A DNA stretch of 32,000 nt from Propionibacteriaceae bacterium (lineage in GTDB: Bacteria; Actinomycetota; Actinomycetes; Propionibacteriales; Propionibacteriaceae), in NCBI GenBank assembly GCA_031256725.1, contig JAIRQE010000018.1:30001-62000 (forward strand), read 5' to 3'. This document shows, one piece after another, positions 10,794 through 32,000 of this stretch. How positions within the stretch are numbered: position 1 is the first letter of the stretch; each line of letters starts with the position of its first letter. The position numbers and the translations under genes were made by a program. Under the pieces are notes generated by a model. It was not told where the DNA came from. It saw only the letters and a list, made by a program, of their open reading frames with translations, and searched no databases.

Positions 10794-11963
10794 CTACACC
10801 CCTGGAGCGGAAATGAATATCGTGGCCGAACCGCTTGCCGATACTTCCTCGCCAAAGGGGATGAGTACAGCCTCCCCAGCCTCAAGATCAAGCAGGGATT
10901 CTCCCTGACGAAGCTGGGCCTCTCCATCAACGACGAGGGCAATGCGACATGAGTCGGGACGGGGAATCTGGATCGGCTGACTCGACAGTTCGCCACGCCA
11001 GACAGCAAACTCTGGAGTAGGAGTGAGGTACCGCTGGAATCCCGAATCCTCTTCAGTTTCGACAGGAGCCAATTCTGAGGGAGTGAAGTCGACTACACGG
11101 ATCAATTCATCAACATTGATGTGTTTGGACGTTAGGCCTCCACGAAGTACATTGTCTGAGCAGGCCATGACCTCGATTCCGACCCCTCCCAGATAGGAGT
11201 GAAGGGTTCGTGTGGGTAGGAAGACGGCCTCGCCTGGATTGAGATGGATCCGGTTCATGAGCATCGCAGCCAGGATTGAAGGCTGCCTGGGGAAGTACCT
11301 GTTGAGTTCCAAAGCGGTACGGGCGAACAAACCCAAGTCAGAGTCGTCTTCTGCGTAGGCTGGTGCCAGGTGAAGGACCTCGTCTACATGCTCAGGATGG
11401 TCTTGACTCAAGATATCTAGAAAGACTTCAGCTAAGGCAGCAGAGCCACGTCTCATGGACAGAGGTCCAATCACTGTTGTGAAGTCCTGGCCTACGCCTA
11501 ACCGAGCAAAAAGATTCACTGTTTGCGCGGGATCACGGAAGCCACATAGGGCATCGAATTCAGTGAGGGCAACAAGGATTTCGGGCTTCGGCCAATTGTC
11601 GCGGTAGATACGTTGGGGGGCATCTAAAGGGATCTTCGCTTTGGATTCCTGGGCGAATCCTTCTTCCGCTTGCTCCCTAGTGGGATGGGCTTGAAGAGAA
11701 AGGGGATGGTCTGCTGCCAGAATCTTCATCAGAGTCGGAAAACGGTCACCGAAAGCACGGTAGGTGCGGTCACCAACCCACTCAGGATGATCATGGAGAA
11801 CCTTGTCGAGTCCAACACCATCAATTGTGGCTGGTGCTAATGGATGAGCCCCAAGCCAGTACTCTGCTTGAGGATCCCCTGTTGGGTCTGACCCTAAGAG
11901 TTCAGGAATAGCTGTTACAGACCCCCACGCATAATCGCGGATCTGTCCCTTCAGTTGGAGCAT
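10794..11963 (-). CDS. manA: mannose-6-phosphate isomerase, class I
   Basis: 389-aa ORF with PMI type I motifs (YAWGS, AEYWLGAHP, LSLQAHP, HSYLGGVGIEVMACSDNVLRGGLT). Confidence 0.9.
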   Translation of the reverse strand: MLQLKGQIRDYAWGSVTAIPELLGSDPTGDPQAEYWLGAHPLAPATIDGVGLDKVLHDHPEWVGDRTYRAFGDRFPTLMKILAADHPLSLQAHPTREQAEEGFAQESKAKIPLDAPQRIYRDNWPKPEILVALTEFDALCGFRDPAQTVNLFARLGVGQDFTTVIGPLSMRRGSAALAEVFLDILSQDHPEHVDEVLHLAPAYAEDDSDLGLFARTALELNRYFPRQPSILAAMLMNRIHLNPGEAVFLPTRTLHSYLGGVGIEVMACSDNVLRGGLTSKHINVDELIRVVDFTPSELAPVETEEDSGFQRYLTPTPEFAVWRGELSSQPIQIPRPDSCRIALVVDGEAQLRQGESLLDLEAGEAVLIPFGEEVSASGSATIFISAPGV

Positions 11964-12438: not shown

Positions 12439-14517
12439 ATGCCAGAAAACCGTGTCCCTTGGTGGGCTGATTCTCCAGCAACGAATAGCGAGACAGGGCC
12501 GGGTAGCATTCCGCCCTATGACGAGGATATGAGACCTGAGTCTCGCCCCTTCGATCGAGCCCCTTACCCACCCCAGGAACGTGTTCCTTTTGGGGAAGAG
12601 CGCCGTCCCATGTTTGGGAGTTCCGCGCCGACACCACCACCAGCGCCTCCTACACCGCAGCAACCTGCGACCCCACTATTTCCTCGTAGTGAGGCTCTGG
12701 GCAGTCTGGGCCAATCTTCAGGATTCTTCTCTGACTTGGACTCACGAGACCAGGCAGGTAGTTCCCAGCCTTCCTATCCATCATCGAGTGGCTATGAGCC
12801 TTCAGTGCCATCTGCGCCGAGTTCCTATGGCTCTGGGTCCTATGATTCCAGTACATATGTGCCGCAGGTACCACGTTCTTCGACTCCGGCAAGTCAATTC
12901 CCGCCAGATCTGCAGGAACCCTCAAGTTTTTCCTCAAGGCCATTCAGTTCGCAGAGGCCTTCCAGCTATGAACCCCAGACTCCATCAGTACCATCATGGG
13001 ATAATCAAGATCCGATCGCCCCTGAGCCGCCACTAGAGGGAACTGCAGATCCTCTGGGCTTCGACAGGTCTACACAATCCTCTCTGCCTCCCCGGGTGAA
13101 TCCCATGATGGGGGCTGAGGATCCGTGGGCACAGGTACTCAGTGAACAGGATCCGACACCTGTACCATCTGTGGATGATTCCCAAGGCAATGAGACTCGC
13201 AGTTATCGCACGGAGGTTCTCCAGGATCTCCAAGATCACAGTGAATACGGTAGTGCTTTTGGTGAGGTTGGTTCTGATTCTCAGGTTTATGGTGATGAGG
13301 CTCGAGTAACCTCAGGTCGGCAGCGTAAAAAGGGCCGCAGGAGAGGCCTCAAGATCGTTCTTATTTCGGTACTAGCAGTTGTTCTTCTTAGCGGTGGAGC
13401 GCTCACCTATGCTTACATCGATCTCAACAGCAAGCTCAACCAGGAGGATGTCGGAAGGGTACTTGGTCGAAACCAACCTAAAGCCCCTGTAGCTACCTCC
13501 GCTGTGAAGTATCCAGGCGATCCTCATGCTGGTCGGGCCGTTAATATTCTTGTTTTGGGGACGGACTCTCGAAGCGGTGATTATAGCGATGGTGCTCGAT
13601 CTGACACAGCAATGGTTGTTCACGTTTCAGCAGATAGAACTCGAGTGGATGTGGTATCGATTCCGCGTGACACTCTGATTACCATTCCTGCGAATTGTCC
13701 GAAGGAGGGTGGCGGTACTATCGCTGCTGCGGGGTGGTCTAATCAGGGCTTTAACGCGGCCTTTGCGTGGGGTATCTATCATGGTAAGAGCCTTGCCACG
13801 GGTATTGCTTGCTCAACACTGGCGACTGAGGCATTGTCTGGTTTGACTATTGATAAGTACGTCGTTGTGAATTTCCTAGGATTCGTGGATGTTGTTGACG
13901 CAATTGGCGGTATCGATGTTGAACTACTTTGTCCCATTAAGGCGCCTAATATTGGGTTGGATCTTTCAGCAGGAGTTCATCACATTGAAGGCTGGACATC
14001 AGTGTCACTTGCTCGTGCCCGAAAGGGGAAGGGTCTTGGCGATCAATCTGACCTTCACCGGATCTACCGTCAACAAAAGATTTTTGATGCTGTCATCGAC
14101 AAAGTATATGCTATGAATTATTTCCGTGATTTCTCGAAGCTTTATAACCTTGCTGGAGCTGGGATTAGTTCTGTCAGCACGGATCTCGGCGATAATTTAG
14201 CAGAGATAGCAGGATTTGCTTATTCGCTCAAAAACCTCAATATGAACTCGCTGCACTTTGTTATGCTTCCTGTTGGATCAGCGGGTAACGGTACAAATGT
14301 TGCTGTCATTCAATCACAGGCCAAGCCCATCTGGGATGCGCTGCGCGACGATGTACCTATGCCCGGAACTGAGGTGCCTGTAGTTGCTGAGGACCCAGGA
14401 GCTAACCCTGCTCCAGAGGATCCTGGTGCTGGTCAAGCACAAGCCCCTGTGGTGGACGACGAACCCAAGTCCACAACGAATGGTCCAATCGTGATTCAGC
14501 GTCCAGAGGACTGCTAA
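12439..14517 (+). CDS. LCP (LytR-CpsA-Psr) family cell-wall glycopolymer ligase with long disordered N-terminus
   Basis: 692-aa ORF. About 300 aa of Pro/Ser-rich sequence, one TM helix (IVLISVLAVVLLSGGALTYAYI), then the LCP core (NILVLGTDSRSGD..RSDTAMVVHVS..VDVVSIPRDT). The start codon is uncertain. Confidence 0.85.
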   Translation: MPENRVPWWADSPATNSETGPGSIPPYDEDMRPESRPFDRAPYPPQERVPFGEERRPMFGSSAPTPPPAPPTPQQPATPLFPRSEALGSLGQSSGFFSDLDSRDQAGSSQPSYPSSSGYEPSVPSAPSSYGSGSYDSSTYVPQVPRSSTPASQFPPDLQEPSSFSSRPFSSQRPSSYEPQTPSVPSWDNQDPIAPEPPLEGTADPLGFDRSTQSSLPPRVNPMMGAEDPWAQVLSEQDPTPVPSVDDSQGNETRSYRTEVLQDLQDHSEYGSAFGEVGSDSQVYGDEARVTSGRQRKKGRRRGLKIVLISVLAVVLLSGGALTYAYIDLNSKLNQEDVGRVLGRNQPKAPVATSAVKYPGDPHAGRAVNILVLGTDSRSGDYSDGARSDTAMVVHVSADRTRVDVVSIPRDTLITIPANCPKEGGGTIAAAGWSNQGFNAAFAWGIYHGKSLATGIACSTLATEALSGLTIDKYVVVNFLGFVDVVDAIGGIDVELLCPIKAPNIGLDLSAGVHHIEGWTSVSLARARKGKGLGDQSDLHRIYRQQKIFDAVIDKVYAMNYFRDFSKLYNLAGAGISSVSTDLGDNLAEIAGFAYSLKNLNMNSLHFVMLPVGSAGNGTNVAVIQSQAKPIWDALRDDVPMPGTEVPVVAEDPGANPAPEDPGAGQAQAPVVDDEPKSTTNGPIVIQRPEDC

Positions 14518-14530
14518 GAATTGTGATTAC

Positions 14531-15541
14531 TCAGAGGTACCCGTCGGGATTTGTGGACTGCCAAAGCCAGGAATCCCGGCAGGCATCCTCAATTGTTCGA
14601 GAGGCTTTCCACTGTAGTTCTTGCGCTGCTTTTTCGGGAGAGCAATAGGTTGATGCGAGATCTCCTGGTCGGCGATCCACGATCTCGTAGGGAAGGGTAC
14701 GCCCACAGGCCTGTCCAAAAGCTTCGATGATCTCCAGTACTGAGCTACCTGTGCCTGTACCCAAGTTATAGGTGGCTACTCCAGGGACAAGGTGGTTGAG
14801 GGCAGAAACATGGCCCTCAGCAAGATCCATCACGTGAATATAGTCGCGGACTCCAGTTCCATCAACAGTGTCGTAATCTTGTCCGAAGACCCGAATGCAC
14901 TCCCGGCGACCAGCAGCAACCTGAGCCACAAAAGGCATGAGGTTATTAGGGATGCCGTTAGGATCCTCGCCAATTAGCCCAGACTCATGGGCACCAACAG
15001 GATTGAAATAACGCAGAAGACTGATCTGCCAACCATCCTCAGCTGCGGCTAGATCGCGTAGGATTTGCTCAATCATGAACTTGGTCCATCCGTAGGGATT
15101 GGAGATTCCTAGGCCCACACAAGCCTCTTCAGTCAATGGAAGATATTCGGGGTCACCGTACACCGTTGCTGAGGAACTGAAGATGAGCCTGCGTACCCCA
15201 TGGTCACTCATGACTTTCACTAAGGAGATGGTGGAATTGATGTTTGTGTCGTAGTACCTCAGTGGTTGAGCTACCGACTCTCCAACGGCTTTCAATCCAG
15301 CCAAATGGATGACTGCCTGCGGTTTCTCTGTTTCGAAGATGGCATTCAAACCAGTAGAATCGCGGATATCGAGTTCATGGAAGCTCACTGGTTTCCCGAG
15401 GATCTCTTCGACACGGGATACCGCTGATTTACAGGAATTGGAGAGATCATCAACGATGATGGGTTCGTGTCCATTGAGGGACAGGCTCACTGCAATATGG
15501 GTTCCGATGTACCCGGCCCCACCAGTTAAAAGAATCCGCAT
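14531..15541 (-). CDS. galE: UDP-glucose 4-epimerase
   Basis: 336-aa ORF with an N-terminal Rossmann motif (LLTGGAGYIGTH), the SDR catalytic YGWTK (YxxxK) and FNPVGAH. Confidence 0.93.
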   Translation of the reverse strand: MRILLTGGAGYIGTHIAVSLSLNGHEPIIVDDLSNSCKSAVSRVEEILGKPVSFHELDIRDSTGLNAIFETEKPQAVIHLAGLKAVGESVAQPLRYYDTNINSTISLVKVMSDHGVRRLIFSSSATVYGDPEYLPLTEEACVGLGISNPYGWTKFMIEQILRDLAAAEDGWQISLLRYFNPVGAHESGLIGEDPNGIPNNLMPFVAQVAAGRRECIRVFGQDYDTVDGTGVRDYIHVMDLAEGHVSALNHLVPGVATYNLGTGTGSSVLEIIEAFGQACGRTLPYEIVDRRPGDLASTYCSPEKAAQELQWKASRTIEDACRDSWLWQSTNPDGYL

Positions 15542-22159: not shown

Positions 22160-22191
22160 GTCTTGCTGGTGACAAGTCTTGCTGGTGACAA
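22160..22191 (+). repeat. perfect tandem duplication 2 x GTCTTGCTGGTGACAA (16 nt)
   Basis: 22160-22175 and 22176-22191 are identical. 16 is not a multiple of 3. Confidence 0.95.
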
Positions 22192-22253
22192 CAGGGCTGA
22201 ATGTGAGGGTTCCAGGGATTGTTCCTGTGGCTGAGGCCGCTACCATGGTATGG

Positions 22254-22700
22254 AAATATACTGGTGGCTATTACTATTTCTATATTGACAATGTGATGCA
22301 AAAGGGTTGGGCGTCCAACGGTTATAATTGGTATTATTTAGATCCTTCGACGGGACGTTGTCAGTTTGGATGGAAGAAGATTTCCGGGGATTGGTATTAC
22401 CTCATTCCTGAGAATGACAGTGGTCGCGCTGCAATGGGGTGGCTGAAAATCGCTGGAGGATGGTACTACTTTGATCCGACTAATGGCTCGGGTCGAATGC
22501 AAATGGGTTGGAAGAAAATCAATGGAGCGTGGTTTTATCTCAACCCTGTGAATGAGTCGGGCGCGATGATGACTGGGTGGCAGTGGCTGTACGACAAGGG
22601 TGGAGAGCATTGGTTCTACTTCCGGCCTGGGGACGATGGAAGAATGGTCGGTGGAAATCAAGTTATCGACGGAATTGAGTACCGGTTCGGTACTTTGGGG
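22254..22700 (+). repeat. array of ~7 degenerate ~20-aa cell-wall-binding (choline/glucan-binding type) repeats, at protein level
   Basis: Recurrent pattern GW-x3-5-G-x-WYY[LF]-x-P-x3-G-x-M in the translation. Confidence 0.8.
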
Positions 22701-23149
22701 AGTGCAACCGAGGGACAGTTGTCGTTGATTCAAACCTGGGATTTGGTGGATGCTGGTAAACACTTAGACGTGGATGGAAACAGCAAATACATGTCCTATA
22801 TTTGGAAAGGGATGAATATATGGAACGGGTATAAGCCGGGAGTTATCCGACGTGACTCCTTGACTGTGGCTCAAGATCTTTATGTGACCGATATCGACCA
22901 GCAAAATATGGCATCTGGTGCGACATCTTCAGATGGAAAGCTTAAACTCAATGTTTACTATTTGAAAAATGAGACCGAGAATACAAAAACACATATTGCC
23001 ACCCATGAGTTGGGGCATGCTCTTGGACTGGCTCATACTCCCACATCAGGCAATATGATGTGGGGATGGATATCTGGTGTTATCCTTCTCTCCCAGGACG
23101 ACAAGACTGCGTATGACCGCGCATACAAGAATTACTAAAGGGGACGACA

Positions 23150-27947: not shown

Positions 27948-28020
27948 GGTCCCCATCGTCTAGTGGTCTAGGACGCCGCCCTTTCACGGCGGTAACACGG
28001 GTTCGAACCCCGTTGGGGAT
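27948..28020 (+). tRNA. tRNA-Glu (TTC)
   Basis: 73-nt cloverleaf very similar to E. coli tRNA-Glu (GTCCCC...CGCCCTTTCACGGCG...GGTTCGAACCCCGT). It has a G1-U72 wobble. Confidence 0.9.
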
Positions 28021-28111
28021 GCTAGGCGTCACAAACGTGATGTCGAAGCCAGTCGGATTGCCTCGAAGACTTCCGTTAGGATATAGTACTTGAGGCCGGT
28101 CCACCGGTACT

Positions 28112-28185
28112 GGCCCCGTGGCGCAGTTGGTTAGCGCGCTTGCCTGTCACGCAAGAGGTCGTGGGTTCAAGTCCCATCGGGGTCG
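28112..28185 (+). tRNA. tRNA-Asp (GTC)
   Basis: 74-nt cloverleaf: acceptor GGCCCCG/CGGGGTC, anticodon loop CT-GTC-AC, GGTTCAAGTCC T-arm. Confidence 0.9.
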
Positions 28186-28210
28186 CAAAGAGTCAGCACA
28201 TGGCTCAATT

Positions 28211-28284
28211 GGCCAGGTAGCTCAGTCGGTAGTAGCGCATCCCTGAAAAGGATGAGGTCGTCGGTTCGATCCCGACCTTGGCCA
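28211..28284 (+). tRNA. tRNA-Phe (GAA)
   Basis: 74-nt cloverleaf: acceptor GGCCAGG/CTTGGCC, anticodon loop CT-GAA-AA, GGTTCGATCC T-arm. The D-arm has one extra nucleotide (GCTCAGTCGGTAGTAGC). Confidence 0.85.
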
Positions 28285-28373
28285 CAGACTGACTTCCACA
28301 ATAAAACTCCTAGTGAACACTTATTTATATAGTTATCATTTCTAGGGGATCGTGACTTGCCTAAGATGGCACT

Positions 28374-28727
28374 ATGGCTGTTGAGATCTCAGATGCTGAC
28401 TTTGATGAGGTGGTATCGCAAGCGCTTGATCAGATTCCTGCCCACTTCATGGATGTACTCGATAATGTTGTTGTCCTTGTTGAGGATGAGCCTGATGGAC
28501 CTGAGAAGGACCTGCTTGGGTTGTACGAAGGGGTTCCTCTATCAGAAAGAGACTCACAGTACGGGGCTGTTCTTCCTGATCACATCTTTATCTATCGAGG
28601 CCCGCTGAAAAGAATGTGCTCGTCAACCGAAGAGCTCGTCGATGAGATCGGTATTACTGTCGTCCATGAGATCGCCCACTTCTTTGGGATAGAGGACGAC
28701 CATCTCCATGAGACGGGGTGGGGATAA
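28374..28727 (+). CDS. zincin-like metallopeptidase family protein (DUF1025 / Zincin_1 type)
   Basis: 117-aa ORF with an acidic N-terminal half and the HEIAHFFG (HExxH) motif near the C-terminus. The size and layout are typical of this family. Confidence 0.8.
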   Translation: MAVEISDADFDEVVSQALDQIPAHFMDVLDNVVVLVEDEPDGPEKDLLGLYEGVPLSERDSQYGAVLPDHIFIYRGPLKRMCSSTEELVDEIGITVVHEIAHFFGIEDDHLHETGWG

Positions 28728-28741
28728 GGCCCCGGAATCGG

Positions 28742-29446
28742 TTAAAGAATCCAGGTTTGGGTGGAATCTGAGACCCACAGTGAGCAGGAGCCGAAGACTT
28801 CAGGGGGAAGGAAACCTGCAACCAGATCGGTGTGGGAGACTACTTCGACTCCTAGTTTCTGGGCGAACCCTTCTGGATCATCACTGATAACGATCAAGGA
28901 TTTTAGGCGGTTGGAAACACAGTTAACACCCAGTGTGGTCACAACCTCGTCAGTGATCCTTCCCGCAACCACAACTATGGGCTTGGCCTCATCCTGGGCC
29001 TTCTCGATCATGGGTACCACATCAGCCATCTGTGTGACGGCTTCAGTAACAATCACGAGAGGCTGAGATAGTACAGCCCTTCCAGATTCAGGGTCGGTCA
29101 CGAAGTCGGGAGAGGCGTACCCGTTCATCAGGGGGCTGACTTCGGCAATCCGAGATGAAATCGACGCTGAGGATTTTAGGGATCCATCATCAGCATGGTG
29201 TACTGGTTGTCGTGCTTGTTCAGCCATCAGGTAGGTTACTTTGCCATGATCCTTCAAGAGGGGTTGGTCTGGAGCAGCCTCAAGGATCTGGGTTCGCCGC
29301 TTGAAAACATGGCGATCCATGCTGAAAGCGAGGAAGACCACTATGAGAGCAGCGACTCCACCACCTATGACAATCCACCAATCCATAGATACATCATCCC
29401 ACCTTGTTGACGCTCCAGATCCATAGGAATTGCCGAGGATCCTCAT
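28742..29446 (-). CDS. membrane-anchored protein with a GroEL (Cpn60) apical-domain-like C-terminal region
   Basis: 234-aa ORF (alternative start ATG 29386, which has an AAGGTGG SD). One TM helix (WWIVIGGGVAALIVVFLAF) followed by KRR. Residues ~109-234 align to the GroEL apical domain (GYASPDFVTDPE..AVL..P......P.IEK....KP.......E..TL.VN). No equatorial ATPase domain. Confidence 0.7.
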   Translation of the reverse strand: MRILGNSYGSGASTRWDDVSMDWWIVIGGGVAALIVVFLAFSMDRHVFKRRTQILEAAPDQPLLKDHGKVTYLMAEQARQPVHHADDGSLKSSASISSRIAEVSPLMNGYASPDFVTDPESGRAVLSQPLVIVTEAVTQMADVVPMIEKAQDEAKPIVVVAGRITDEVVTTLGVNCVSNRLKSLIVISDDPEGFAQKLGVEVVSHTDLVAGFLPPEVFGSCSLWVSDSTQTWIL

Positions 29447-29638: not shown

Positions 29639-32000
29639 GTGGCCAAGCCCCGCGTCCACGAGCTTGCGAAAGAGCTCGGACTCGATAGTAAGACCGTTCT
29701 TGCTGCCCTCACAGAGATGGGGGAGTATGTGCGTTCTGCGTCCTCGACGATAGAACCCCCTGTTGCGCGGCGTTTACGTGAACGTTATGCCAAGACACCA
29801 GACCCGGAACCTGTGACGCCCCCTGTTGCAGAAGTCAAAGCCCCACCGCCTCCTCCCGAGCCCACGCCGGTTGAGGAGCCTGCCCCGAAGGCAAAGAGGT
29901 CCTCTGCAAAGAAGGCTGTACCACCGGTTGATTCAATACCAGTTGAGGTGGAGGTACCAGCCCCAGAGCCCACAATCGTTGAGCCTCCAGTGGTGGAGAC
30001 TCCCGCTCCAGAGCCTCAATCTGATGAGGATAGGCCAGCGATCCCTAAGCCTTCCCAGATGATTCCGCGCCCGATTCCGCGCCCTCAGCCTGGTCCAGGA
30101 GCACGTCGTCCTGGTACCCCACGCCCTGGCAACAATCCCTACGCCTCTTCTCAAGGTATGGGAGTACGCCGTCCCCAGCGTGAAGAGGGTGGTCGTCCCG
30201 CGGGTACTGGTCCGCGTGCTCCACGCCCAGGTGCTGGTGGTGCAGGTGCACCAAGAACAGGTACCCCAGGTGGAGGTCCGCGCCAGTCAACTCCAGGAAT
30301 GGGTACAAACGCCCCAGGCCAAACAGGGCGCCCACCTCGTGGTCGTGGTTCGGCCCCGAGCTTCGGTGGTCCATCTCAAGGTCCAGGCGCACCCCAGGGT
30401 CGCGGTGGACGTGGTGGTCGCGCCGGATCGGGTACCCAAGGTGCTTTCGGACGCCAAGGTGGCCCGACCCGCAAATCAAAGAAGTCGAAGAAGCTACGTC
30501 GTCAAGAGTTCGACGAGATGGAAGCACCAACCATCTCGGGTGTACGCATTCGTCAAGGTGAGGGTCAAACCATCCGTCTGCCTCGTGGCTCTTCGTTGAC
30601 AGATCTGGCTGAGAAGATCTCGGTGGATCCCGCTCAACTTGTCCAGGTACTCTTCAATATGGGTGAGATGTTGACCGCAACCCAGTCGGTCTCCGATGAC
30701 ACACTGGAGATCCTCGGTTCGGAACTCAACTATGACATCCAGGTCGTCTCCCCTGAGGATGAGGACCGCGAATTGCTCATGGCCTTCGACCTCGACTTCG
30801 GTGAGAACCTCGCTGAGGATGAGGATCTGGTCGTACGTCCCCCCATCGTCACTGTCATGGGCCACGTTGACCACGGTAAAACGAAGCTCCTTGATGCCTT
30901 CCGACGTACCAATGTGGTCGCGGGTGAGGCCGGTGGAATCACCCAGGCTATCGGCGCCTATCAGGTACACACCAAGGTTTCTGATGAGGAACGAGTCGTC
31001 ACCTTCATTGATACCCCTGGTCACGAAGCTTTTACCGCTATGCGTGTCCGTGGTGCGCAGGTCACTGATATTGCGGTGCTCGTTGTGGCTGCTGATGATG
31101 GTGTGATGCCTCAGACCGTTGAGGCTCTCAACCACGCCAAGGCGGCTGATGTACCCATCGTTGTTGCAGTGAACAAGATTGATAAGGAAGGCGCAGATCC
31201 GACGAAGGTCCGCGGTCAGTTGAGCGAATATGGTCTCGTACCTGACACCTATGGCGGCGATACCATGTTCGTGGATGTGTCCGCTGTGACACGAGAGGGG
31301 CTTGAGGATCTTCTCACTGCCATCGTGCTTACTGCTGATGCTGAATTGGATCTTCGTGTCGACTCGGATATGCCTGCTCAAGGTGTGGCGATTGAAGCCC
31401 ATCTTGACCGTGGACGTGGTCCAGTTGCGACCGCAATTGTTCAACGAGGCACCCTCCAGATCGGTGACTCGATCGTGGCAGGAAACTCTTATGGTCGCGT
31501 ACGCGCCCTCGTCAACGATCATGGGGAGATGGTGGATCAAGCACCACCATCAACACCAGTACAGGTCCTCGGTTTGACTGCCGTCCCTGGCGCTGGTGAC
31601 AACTTCCTGATTGTGGACGACGAACGTACTGCTCGCCAGATTGCCGAAAAGAGAGAGGCCCGAATGAGGGCTGCTGCTCTGGCTAAGGGAACCAAGCGCC
31701 GTACCCTTGAAGATCTGTTCAAAGAGATGGAGAAGGGCGAAGAACTCAACCTCATCCTCAAGGGCGATTCTGCTGGTTCTGTGGAAGCCCTCGAAGATGC
31801 GCTCGTTTCCATTGATGTGGGTGAAGAGGTCAATCTCAGGATCATCGACCGCGGTGTGGGTGCGATCACCGAGACCAACGTCACCTTGGCTGCTGCCTCG
31901 AATGCCATCATCATTGGCTTCCATGTACGCGCTCAGGGTCATGCCACACAGTTGGCCAACCAAGAGGGTGTCGATATCCGGTACTACTCGATCATCTACC
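29639..32000 (+). CDS. infB: translation initiation factor IF-2 (3' end beyond the window)
   Basis: GTG 29639 has an AAGGAG SD at 29629-29634. N-terminus [31 protein letters not shown], a Pro/Gly/Arg-rich linker, then the G-domain [29 protein letters not shown]. It is open to the window end, which is presumably why the ORF track does not list it. Confidence 0.95.

Follow-up and report, generated by a model that had tools for sequence, protein, structure and literature searches.

A conserved Propionibacteriaceae protein family that combines a membrane anchor with a GroEL-type apical domain

The 32,000-nucleotide (nt) stretch of DNA analysed here, referred to as the window, comes from a Propionibacteriaceae bacterium (contig JAIRQE010000018.1, positions 30,001 to 62,000). 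Its minus strand carries an open reading frame (ORF) of 234 amino acids (aa) at 28742..29446. The original prediction, made from the sequence alone, proposed that this ORF encodes a membrane-tethered apical domain of the chaperonin GroEL, perhaps a natural 'minichaperone'. The ORF is indeed present in the window, but its first 20 residues are not part of the protein. All homologues begin at Met21 of the 234-aa ORF (ATG at 29386; MDWW, MEW or similar), and a 52%-identical orthologue with identical synteny (L001) contains an in-frame stop 12 nt upstream of the equivalent ATG. The NCBI product annotation, found in a Propionibacteriaceae metagenome-assembled genome (MAG), is likewise 214 aa long (P0001). 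The gene therefore spans 28742..29386 on the minus strand and encodes a protein of 214 aa. Residue numbers given below are those of this protein, and adding 20 yields the numbering of the 234-aa ORF. The gene has the following features, where HMM stands for hidden Markov model and AF2 for AlphaFold2:

28742..29386, minus strand, stop included: family gene encoding the 214-aa membrane-anchored apical-domain protein (ORF; homologue starts; NCBI annotation P0001; family HMM 235 bits)
29318..29380, minus strand: single transmembrane helix, residues 3–23, WWIVIGGGVAALIVVFLAFSM (Kyte–Doolittle 19-mer mean 2.57, 4 residues before; AF2 helix 3–36)
29294..29317, minus strand: basic juxtamembrane segment DRHVFKRR (D24 in 87/90 and R25 in 75/90 sequences)
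29213..29275, minus strand: conserved linker motif region, residues 38–58 (consensus PP(D/E)RxIPG(L/F)...PxY(L/V))
28745..29149, minus strand: GroEL apical-domain core, residues 80–214, corresponding to E. coli GroEL 189–333 (hhalign, AF2, Foldseek)
28991..29029, minus strand: helix H equivalent MADVVPMIEKAQD, in which V124 and I127 correspond to GroEL L234 and L237 (profile mapping)
28916..28951, minus strand: helix I equivalent DEVVTTLGVNCV, in which V154 corresponds to GroEL V264 and N155 (codon 28922-28924) to N265

It is nearly certain that this protein is a membrane-anchored, cytoplasmic, stand-alone GroEL apical core. As a single sequence, it matched the NCBIfam GroEL models with E values of 4e-13 to 1e-12 (residues 105–187 of the 234-aa ORF aligned to GroEL 193–276), and the homology detectable in this way spans residues ~100–187 of that ORF, or GroEL 189–276. 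A phmmer search of the PDB identified solved chaperonin chains (E 7e-11), M. tuberculosis GroEL2 (E 1.5e-10) and also the isolated apical domains 1srv, 3m6c and 1kid. The HMMER alignment is essentially the one that had been drawn by eye against actinobacterial GroEL2. The Pfam profile suggested for checking the homology, PF00118 (Cpn60_TCP1), did not significantly match the window protein, even though the NCBIfam models and the profile comparison described next did; it matched 2 of 90 family members at E<0.01, and no Pfam family recurs across these 90. The whole-protein score against TIGR02348 (47.8 bits) lies below the chaperonin family cut-off of 582. When a profile of the 90 family sequences was compared with a GroEL profile by hhalign, residues 80–214 aligned to E. 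coli GroEL 189–333 with a probability of 99.7% (E 6.2e-27), and hmmsearch of the PDB with the family profile returned chaperonins only (best E 2e-25). With the family profile, the homology thus reaches the final residue of the protein, as originally suggested. However, the alignment is not gapless, as GroEL 223 is an extra residue and GroEL 281–288 is missing from the family.

The predicted structure agrees with the profile comparisons. An AF2 model built from a 90-sequence multiple sequence alignment free of GroEL had a predicted local distance difference test score (pLDDT) of 92.4 and a predicted template modelling score of 0.76, with residues 80–214 at a pLDDT of 95–98. This run was used in place of one with a 3-sequence alignment, which was unusable (pLDDT 47). 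The best Foldseek match of the model was 1dk7 (E 1.3e-13, template modelling score 0.80 on the target, root-mean-square deviation 2.6 Å, 142 columns). The best 50 of 116 matches (E<=0.001) were group I chaperonins without exception, with isolated apical domains at the top (1dk7, 1la1, 1srv, 3m6c and 1jon). AF2 and Foldseek thus both show the fold of the apical domain, a beta core overlaid by helices H and I.

The protein contains the core of the apical domain and not the complete domain, as the C-terminal helices K and L (GroEL 339–375) are missing. The domain ends at approximately the same point as crystallised, stably folded GroEL fragments (191–336, 192–336 and 191–345). The remainder of GroEL is absent, as predicted. 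No equatorial ATP-binding domain was found, with profile and structure matches confined to GroEL ~175/189–333 and at most a faint trace of GroEL 175–190 in the profile comparisons. No intermediate domain was found either, since the protein stops at the equivalent of GroEL I333 and has no counterpart of 377–409. In GroEL, the equatorial domain consists of the N- and C-terminal ~130 and ~140 residues and bears most of the ring contacts; residues 1–79 of the family protein comprise the transmembrane helix and the linker and have no chaperonin match. Over 135 aligned positions, identity to E. coli GroEL amounts to 24% for the window protein and 34% for the family consensus, and the GroEL residues kept in the family include G198, F204, P218, P235, T261, L262, N265 and G318. 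The domain most likely originated when part of a group I chaperonin gene was copied. The GroELs that score best for the domain, all from outside Propionibacteriaceae, form a mixed set and point to no single donor lineage.

The N-terminal part of the protein contains a transmembrane helix followed by DRHVFKRR, as originally described. Across the 90 sequences, the hydrophobic helix has a median Kyte–Doolittle value of 2.54, and its N-terminal flank is acidic with a median length of 4 residues. The 15 residues after the helix contain a mean of 4.6 lysines and arginines, compared to 0.06 before it, and this asymmetry was observed in 90 of 90 sequences. By the positive-inside rule, such a charge pattern would place the linker and the apical domain in the cytoplasm, so that the protein is probably an N-out/C-in single-pass (reverse signal-anchor) protein. 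The predicted ~55-aa linker exists as well, although it is not a passive one. Its motif region (P39 in 80, P42 in 81, P50 in 86 and Y52 in 87 of the 90 sequences) is as strongly conserved as the apical domain, with mean conservation values of 0.51 and 0.49, respectively. The window protein departs from the linker consensus with a valine at P50. Some members carry long, low-complexity insertions rich in proline, alanine and glutamate, located within the domain or in the variable portion of the linker (P0033, 381 aa; P0047, 273 aa; P0026, 267 aa), and tether length is therefore unconstrained.

To determine the extent of the family, 1.84 billion cluster representatives were searched exhaustively with HMMER. 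This yielded 134 representatives at E<=1e-10, of which ~125 are full-length (205–250 aa) and share the same architecture, with true GroELs ranking below them. Word-indexed protein searches gave 2, 7 and 26 matches, the first consisting of the protein itself and one relative. The clusters are from Propionibacteriaceae (Micropruina, Granulicoccus, Propionicimonas and several MAGs) and are named 'hypothetical protein' or, occasionally, 'chaperonin GroEL' (IMG). This is a previously unannotated protein family that goes by the former label and is sometimes mislabelled with the latter. It is not covered by any Pfam or NCBIfam family. Our literature searches found no description of a natural stand-alone or apical-only GroEL homologue, in line with the earlier statement that no natural protein consisting of a membrane anchor and an apical domain had been described.

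A scan of GTDB (one genome per species) with a degenerate DNA pattern for DLx[AS]G[YWF]xP-9aa-W[VI]-5aa-[ST]W identified 77 loci, 73 of which were verified by the family HMM, in 73 species genomes. Three clear false matches, in Nocardioides, Gemmataceae and Sulfitobacter, failed this check. The pattern fits ~37% of family sequences, so the true range is wider and absence from Cutibacterium, Propionibacterium sensu stricto and others cannot be deduced from it. The family gene was found in Micropruina, Propionicimonas, Propioniciclava, Propionicicella, Tessaracoccus, Enemella, Granulicoccus, Arachnia/Pseudopropionibacterium, Desertihabitans, Auraticoccus, Nigerium and Avipropionibacterium. All named carriers are Propionibacteriaceae, and the survey shows conservation across this group. 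Two family genes on short contigs come from a MAG labelled Bifidobacterium sp. (L041) and one labelled Acidimicrobiales (L020). The aligned protein region of the former is essentially that of a Propionibacteriaceae MAG (L039; n=224, pN 0.002), and both look like binning errors and not like horizontal transfer. Plasmid and phage collections contained full-length groEL genes and no family member, which indicates that this is not a mobile-element gene.

The family gene is under purifying selection, with ratios of non-synonymous to synonymous substitutions (dN/dS) of 0.13–0.38 among closer species pairs (dS 0.05–1.0). These pairs were used for the estimate, as synonymous sites were saturated in the comparison with the closest orthologue. 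Selection is stricter on the neighbouring genes infB or Zincin_1 (dN/dS 0.05–0.06). A lineage-specific, decaying groEL remnant, the scenario named as fatal to the original prediction, is excluded by the conservation of the family and by these ratios. In three 'MFD' MAGs, the gene is split across two to four frames (L019 2322-3159, L044 3691-4478 and L067 3218-4503), which could reflect assembly indel errors or real pseudogenes.

Next, we focused on the residues of the GroEL binding groove. The hydrophobic positions of helices H and I are conserved in part. The equivalents of GroEL L234, L237 and V264 are hydrophobic in 84, 90 and 90 of the 90 sequences, whereas V263 is not conserved. N155, the equivalent of N265, forms the sole invariant column of the family (90/90). 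The F204 equivalent is phenylalanine in 85/90, that of Y199 is hydrophobic and mostly aromatic in 84/90, and that of L259 is hydrophobic in 73/90 and arginine in some sequences. T261 and L262 are retained, and the family consensus RELLPxLE parallels REMLPVLE in GroEL. A divergent subclade includes the window protein, which has ADVVP in place of RELLP and valine in place of P50. In GroEL, L234, L237 and V264 touch the IVL tripeptide of GroES, and the N265A substitution blocks GroES binding while substrate binding is kept (PMC3514286). A set of family-specific residues, D187-L188-x-A-G191-Y192-L-P194, W204 and W212, is located in the last third of the domain. Together with the linker motif, they could make up for the loss of helices K and L or provide a new surface for interactions; alternatively, the linker could dock in the groove.

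The surroundings of the gene in the window contain the following features:

28374..28727, plus strand: Zincin_1/DUF1025 mini-zincin, 117 aa, convergent (Pfam PF06262, E 3e-32; stops 14 nt apart)
29387..29446, minus strand: 20 upstream codons of the longer ORF (conserved in no homologue; in-frame stop in L001)
29393..29398, minus strand: -10-like hexamer GATGAT, 6 nt upstream of the ATG (sequence geometry)
29399-29405, minus strand: Shine–Dalgarno-like AAGGTGG
29639..32000, plus strand, running off the window: infB, divergent (Pfam IF2_N, GTP_EFTU and IF-2; GTG start)

The convergent zincin and the divergent infB were both part of the original prediction. The former holds family-wide, but adjacency to infB is limited to the subclade of the window. 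Zincin_1 adjoins the family gene in convergent orientation in 46 loci, with stop codons 14–230 nt apart, and the two genes are therefore not co-transcribed. It is an actinobacteria-wide signature gene (SCO3031/ML0761) found well beyond Propionibacteriaceae (PMC4255298), so that its position beside the family gene may have been inherited instead of reflecting a functional link. Its product is a mini-zincin with a solved structure and no demonstrated activity (PMC3890501), provisionally placed in MEROPS as M94. Clustering of the neighbours showed that conservation is confined to the downstream side. A secreted wall-binding protein with three SH3 domains is encoded next downstream in 53 loci. In ~14 loci, DUF202 membrane-protein genes intervene and overlap the stop codon of the family gene, which implies translational coupling. 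They are found in a subset of genera, as a single DUF202 (YidH-like) gene, a pair of them or an EamA-DUF202 fusion (L005 8678-9415 and L002 8681-9967; further loci are L010, L022, L042, L062, L065, L071 and L072). Many loci have a divergent tRNA-Lys(UUU) 30–200 bp upstream (L003, L005, L007, L021, L025, L051 and others) and a tRNA-Glu-Asp-Phe cluster that closes the block after the SH3 gene, so the ancestral locus was bracketed by tRNA genes.

The window has kept Zincin_1 and the Glu-Asp-Phe tRNAs (27949-28285), with the tRNA cluster inverted relative to the family gene. The SH3 gene has been lost, and infB occupies the place of the upstream tRNA-Lys, an arrangement otherwise seen only in L001 and L069. 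The intergenic region between the family gene and infB measures 252 bp, and the GTG start of infB is preceded by GGAG. Neither nusA nor rimP was found ahead of infB within the 32-kb window, where infB had originally been described as solitary. In this lineage, the usual nusA-infB operon seems to have been broken up. Downstream in L001, the order is infB-rbfA-truB-ribF-rpsO-pnp. Linkage to groES was not found in ~70 neighbourhoods, and Rfam identified only tRNAs in the window. Elsewhere in the window, a 319-aa ORF at 22179-23138 (plus strand) has choline-binding repeats (PF19127, PF01473) and, at its C-terminal end, a matrixin-like HExxH metallopeptidase segment, an unusual pairing for an actinobacterium. 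A 692-aa LytR-CpsA-Psr (LCP) protein is encoded at 12439-14517 (plus strand), with the LCP domain only at 387–556, behind a long N-terminal extension. Its gene is flanked on the minus strand by those for a phosphomannose isomerase (10794-11963) and an NAD-dependent epimerase/dehydratase-family (GDP-mannose 4,6-dehydratase-like) protein (14531-15541).

The 20 codons upstream of the family gene most likely constitute an untranslated promoter region. Almost all of 60 family loci have the -10-like hexamer, which ends 6–7 nt ahead of the start codon. It takes the forms CACACT, CAGGCT, TAGGCT and CAGTCT, often inside GCACACTGG, and is GATGAT or GAGGAT in the window clade. Where the tRNA is missing, the hexamer remains with the family gene. 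A -10 hexamer 6–7 nt ahead of the start is the geometry of leaderless actinobacterial mRNAs, and its presence here further supports the start at ATG 29386. It also suggests a conserved leaderless promoter, albeit of unusual sequence. A scan around the gene revealed no consensus sigma-70 promoter and no terminator. No operator of the CIRCE (controlling inverted repeat of chaperone expression) or HAIR (HspR-associated inverted repeat) type, as expected for the HrcA/HspR heat-shock regulon, was found anywhere in the window.

Taken as a whole, the protein would be a single-pass inner-membrane protein of Propionibacteriaceae, with ~4 residues outside and everything beyond the helix in the cytoplasm, where the conserved linker would lead to the apical core (equivalent to E. 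coli 189–333). Because the equatorial ATPase and intermediate domains are missing, it should be unable to hydrolyse ATP, to assemble into a tetradecameric cage or to enclose clients. What may have been retained as the working surface is the groove between helices H and I, which would accommodate, without ATP, an extended and hydrophobic segment resembling a loop or hairpin. Candidate ligands would be a non-native client, implying holdase-like action, or a defined partner motif. We give an even chance to the view that the protein is an ATP-independent peptide-binding module that acts at the inner membrane face via the H/I groove. The natural 'minichaperone' is a tentative, more specific version, where the tethered apical domain captures hydrophobic or mobile-loop-like segments without ATP and thereby holds non-native membrane or secretory proteins or docks GroES. 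Such a function is putative, with a groove that is only partly conserved and no heat-shock operator found upstream.

Several observations weigh against groove binding. The classical substrate-binding residue Y203 has been replaced by D/R/G/E (hydrophobic in 11/90) and V263 by A/E/R/V (46/90), and the groove positions as a set show no greater conservation (0.50) than the remaining domain (0.48). The hydrophobic residues that are kept, as well as N265, could be structural instead. Among the most conserved residues are several without a GroEL counterpart (D187, L188, G191, Y192, P194, W204, W212 and the P/Y motif of the linker), which point to a new surface. Moreover, a monomeric apical domain on its own binds ligands weakly, and neither CIRCE (<=5 mismatches) nor HAIR (<=3) was found within 300 nt upstream in 62 loci. 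Much of this would fit the main rival reading, a neofunctionalised scaffold, in which the apical fold is merely the framework, the working surface consists of DLxAGYLP, W204, W212 and the linker PP..P.Y, and the protein is a membrane adaptor or regulator without chaperone-like binding. The near-invariant family-specific residues lie outside the groove, the linker motif is conserved like the domain, Y203 and V263 are lost, and heat-shock operators were not found. Such a scaffold is nonetheless rather unlikely, as N265 is the sole invariant residue, the three GroES-contact positions are still hydrophobic, and W204, W212 and the linker may merely substitute for helices K and L. Its partner could be, for example, the adjacent mini-zincin or the co-operonic DUF202 membrane proteins. 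Zincin_1 adjoins in 46 loci and DUF202 genes overlap the stop in ~14, whereas Zincin_1 is convergent, not co-transcribed and actinobacteria-wide, so that its adjacency may be inherited (PMC4255298).

The favoured groove-binding model includes a specific variant in which the protein is a dedicated GroES (Cpn10) receptor that binds the mobile loop, thereby recruiting this co-chaperonin to the membrane, sequestering it there or vying with GroEL for it. The best-kept positions are precisely the contacts of the GroES IVL tripeptide, L234, L237 and V264, together with N265, whose mutation to alanine blocks binding of GroES and not of substrate (PMC3514286), while the substrate-only positions Y203 and V263 have drifted. 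As a single apical domain would hold one mobile loop weakly, in contrast to the avidity of seven sites in GroEL, and as groES linkage is absent from ~70 neighbourhoods, we consider this variant improbable. A surface-exposed Hsp60-like module, serving as an extracellular adhesin or wall factor alongside the SH3 wall-binding protein, is highly improbable. Full-length Hsp60s have been reported to moonlight on cell surfaces, and 53 loci carry the gene for the triple-SH3 wall-binding protein immediately downstream. However, the charge bias favours a cytoplasmic C-terminal part in 90/90 sequences, and the N-terminus has no positive n-region and is not of the signal-peptidase type, its flank being acidic with a median of 4 residues. 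The chance that the ORF is spurious, or that it is a functionless remnant left by the decay of a groEL duplicate, is negligible. The two matches in the word-indexed search, the silence of Pfam and the departures of the window protein from conserved sites (RELLP to ADVVP, P50 to V) would be in its favour. They are opposed by ~125 full-length cluster representatives and 73 species genomes, conserved length, start, stop and promoter-like geometry, dN/dS of 0.13–0.38, a pLDDT of 92 and a 52%-identical orthologue in identical synteny.

Compared to the group I chaperonin apical domain (GroEL/Cpn60, E. coli 191–376), the family domain is homologous, has the same fold and contains recognisable helices H and I. 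Unlike GroEL, the family protein lacks the equatorial and intermediate domains and hence the ATPase, ring, cage and allostery. It also lacks helices K and L (339–375) and 281–288, and is fused to an N-terminal transmembrane helix and a conserved linker. Y203 and V263 of GroEL are not conserved in the family, which has the new conserved elements DLxAGYLP, W204 and W212. Its closest likeness is to engineered minichaperones (191–345, 191–336 and 192–336; 1jon, 1dk7, 1srv and 1kid), which have nearly equal boundaries (189–333 in the family) and provide the best structural matches in the PDB. Engineered GroEL apical fragments have chaperone activity. Both are monomer-sized apical modules that are, or in the family protein would be, independent of ATP. 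However, engineered minichaperones are soluble laboratory truncations, whereas the family protein is encoded by a natural gene that has evolved in its own right, is tethered to the membrane and has a partly remodelled binding surface. PIKFYVE, for which an 'apical domain-like' region is described in the literature, likewise has a chaperonin apical-type domain outside a ring and in a membrane-associated protein. The apical-like (CCT/TCP-1-like) domain of PIKfyve/Fab1 is a protein-interaction module, of group II type and eukaryotic. Unlike the bacterial family, to which it has no evolutionary link, PIKfyve/Fab1 is a very large multidomain enzyme and is not transmembrane. SecB is an ATP-independent holdase that acts near the membrane and binds unfolded segments. 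It resembles the family only in the proposed mode of action, nucleotide-free binding near the membrane, as SecB is soluble and has an unrelated fold.

The isolated GroEL apical domain has for decades been a laboratory construct in the debate between simple binding and an ATP-driven cage. A conserved and selected natural protein that consists of little beyond this domain shows that evolution has found a separate use for it. The family thus offers a genetic system for asking what a lone apical domain can do, with cultured hosts that include Granulicoccus phenolivorans, Micropruina glycogenica, Propioniciclava tarda, Tessaracoccus caeni and Enemella species, and it could also be used as a marker of Propionibacteriaceae. 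If the ligand is GroES or nascent membrane proteins, the family would add a new layer to proteostasis at the membrane of actinobacteria. If the minichaperone reading is true, this would be the first bacterial chaperonin substrate-binding domain that works outside the chaperonin ring.

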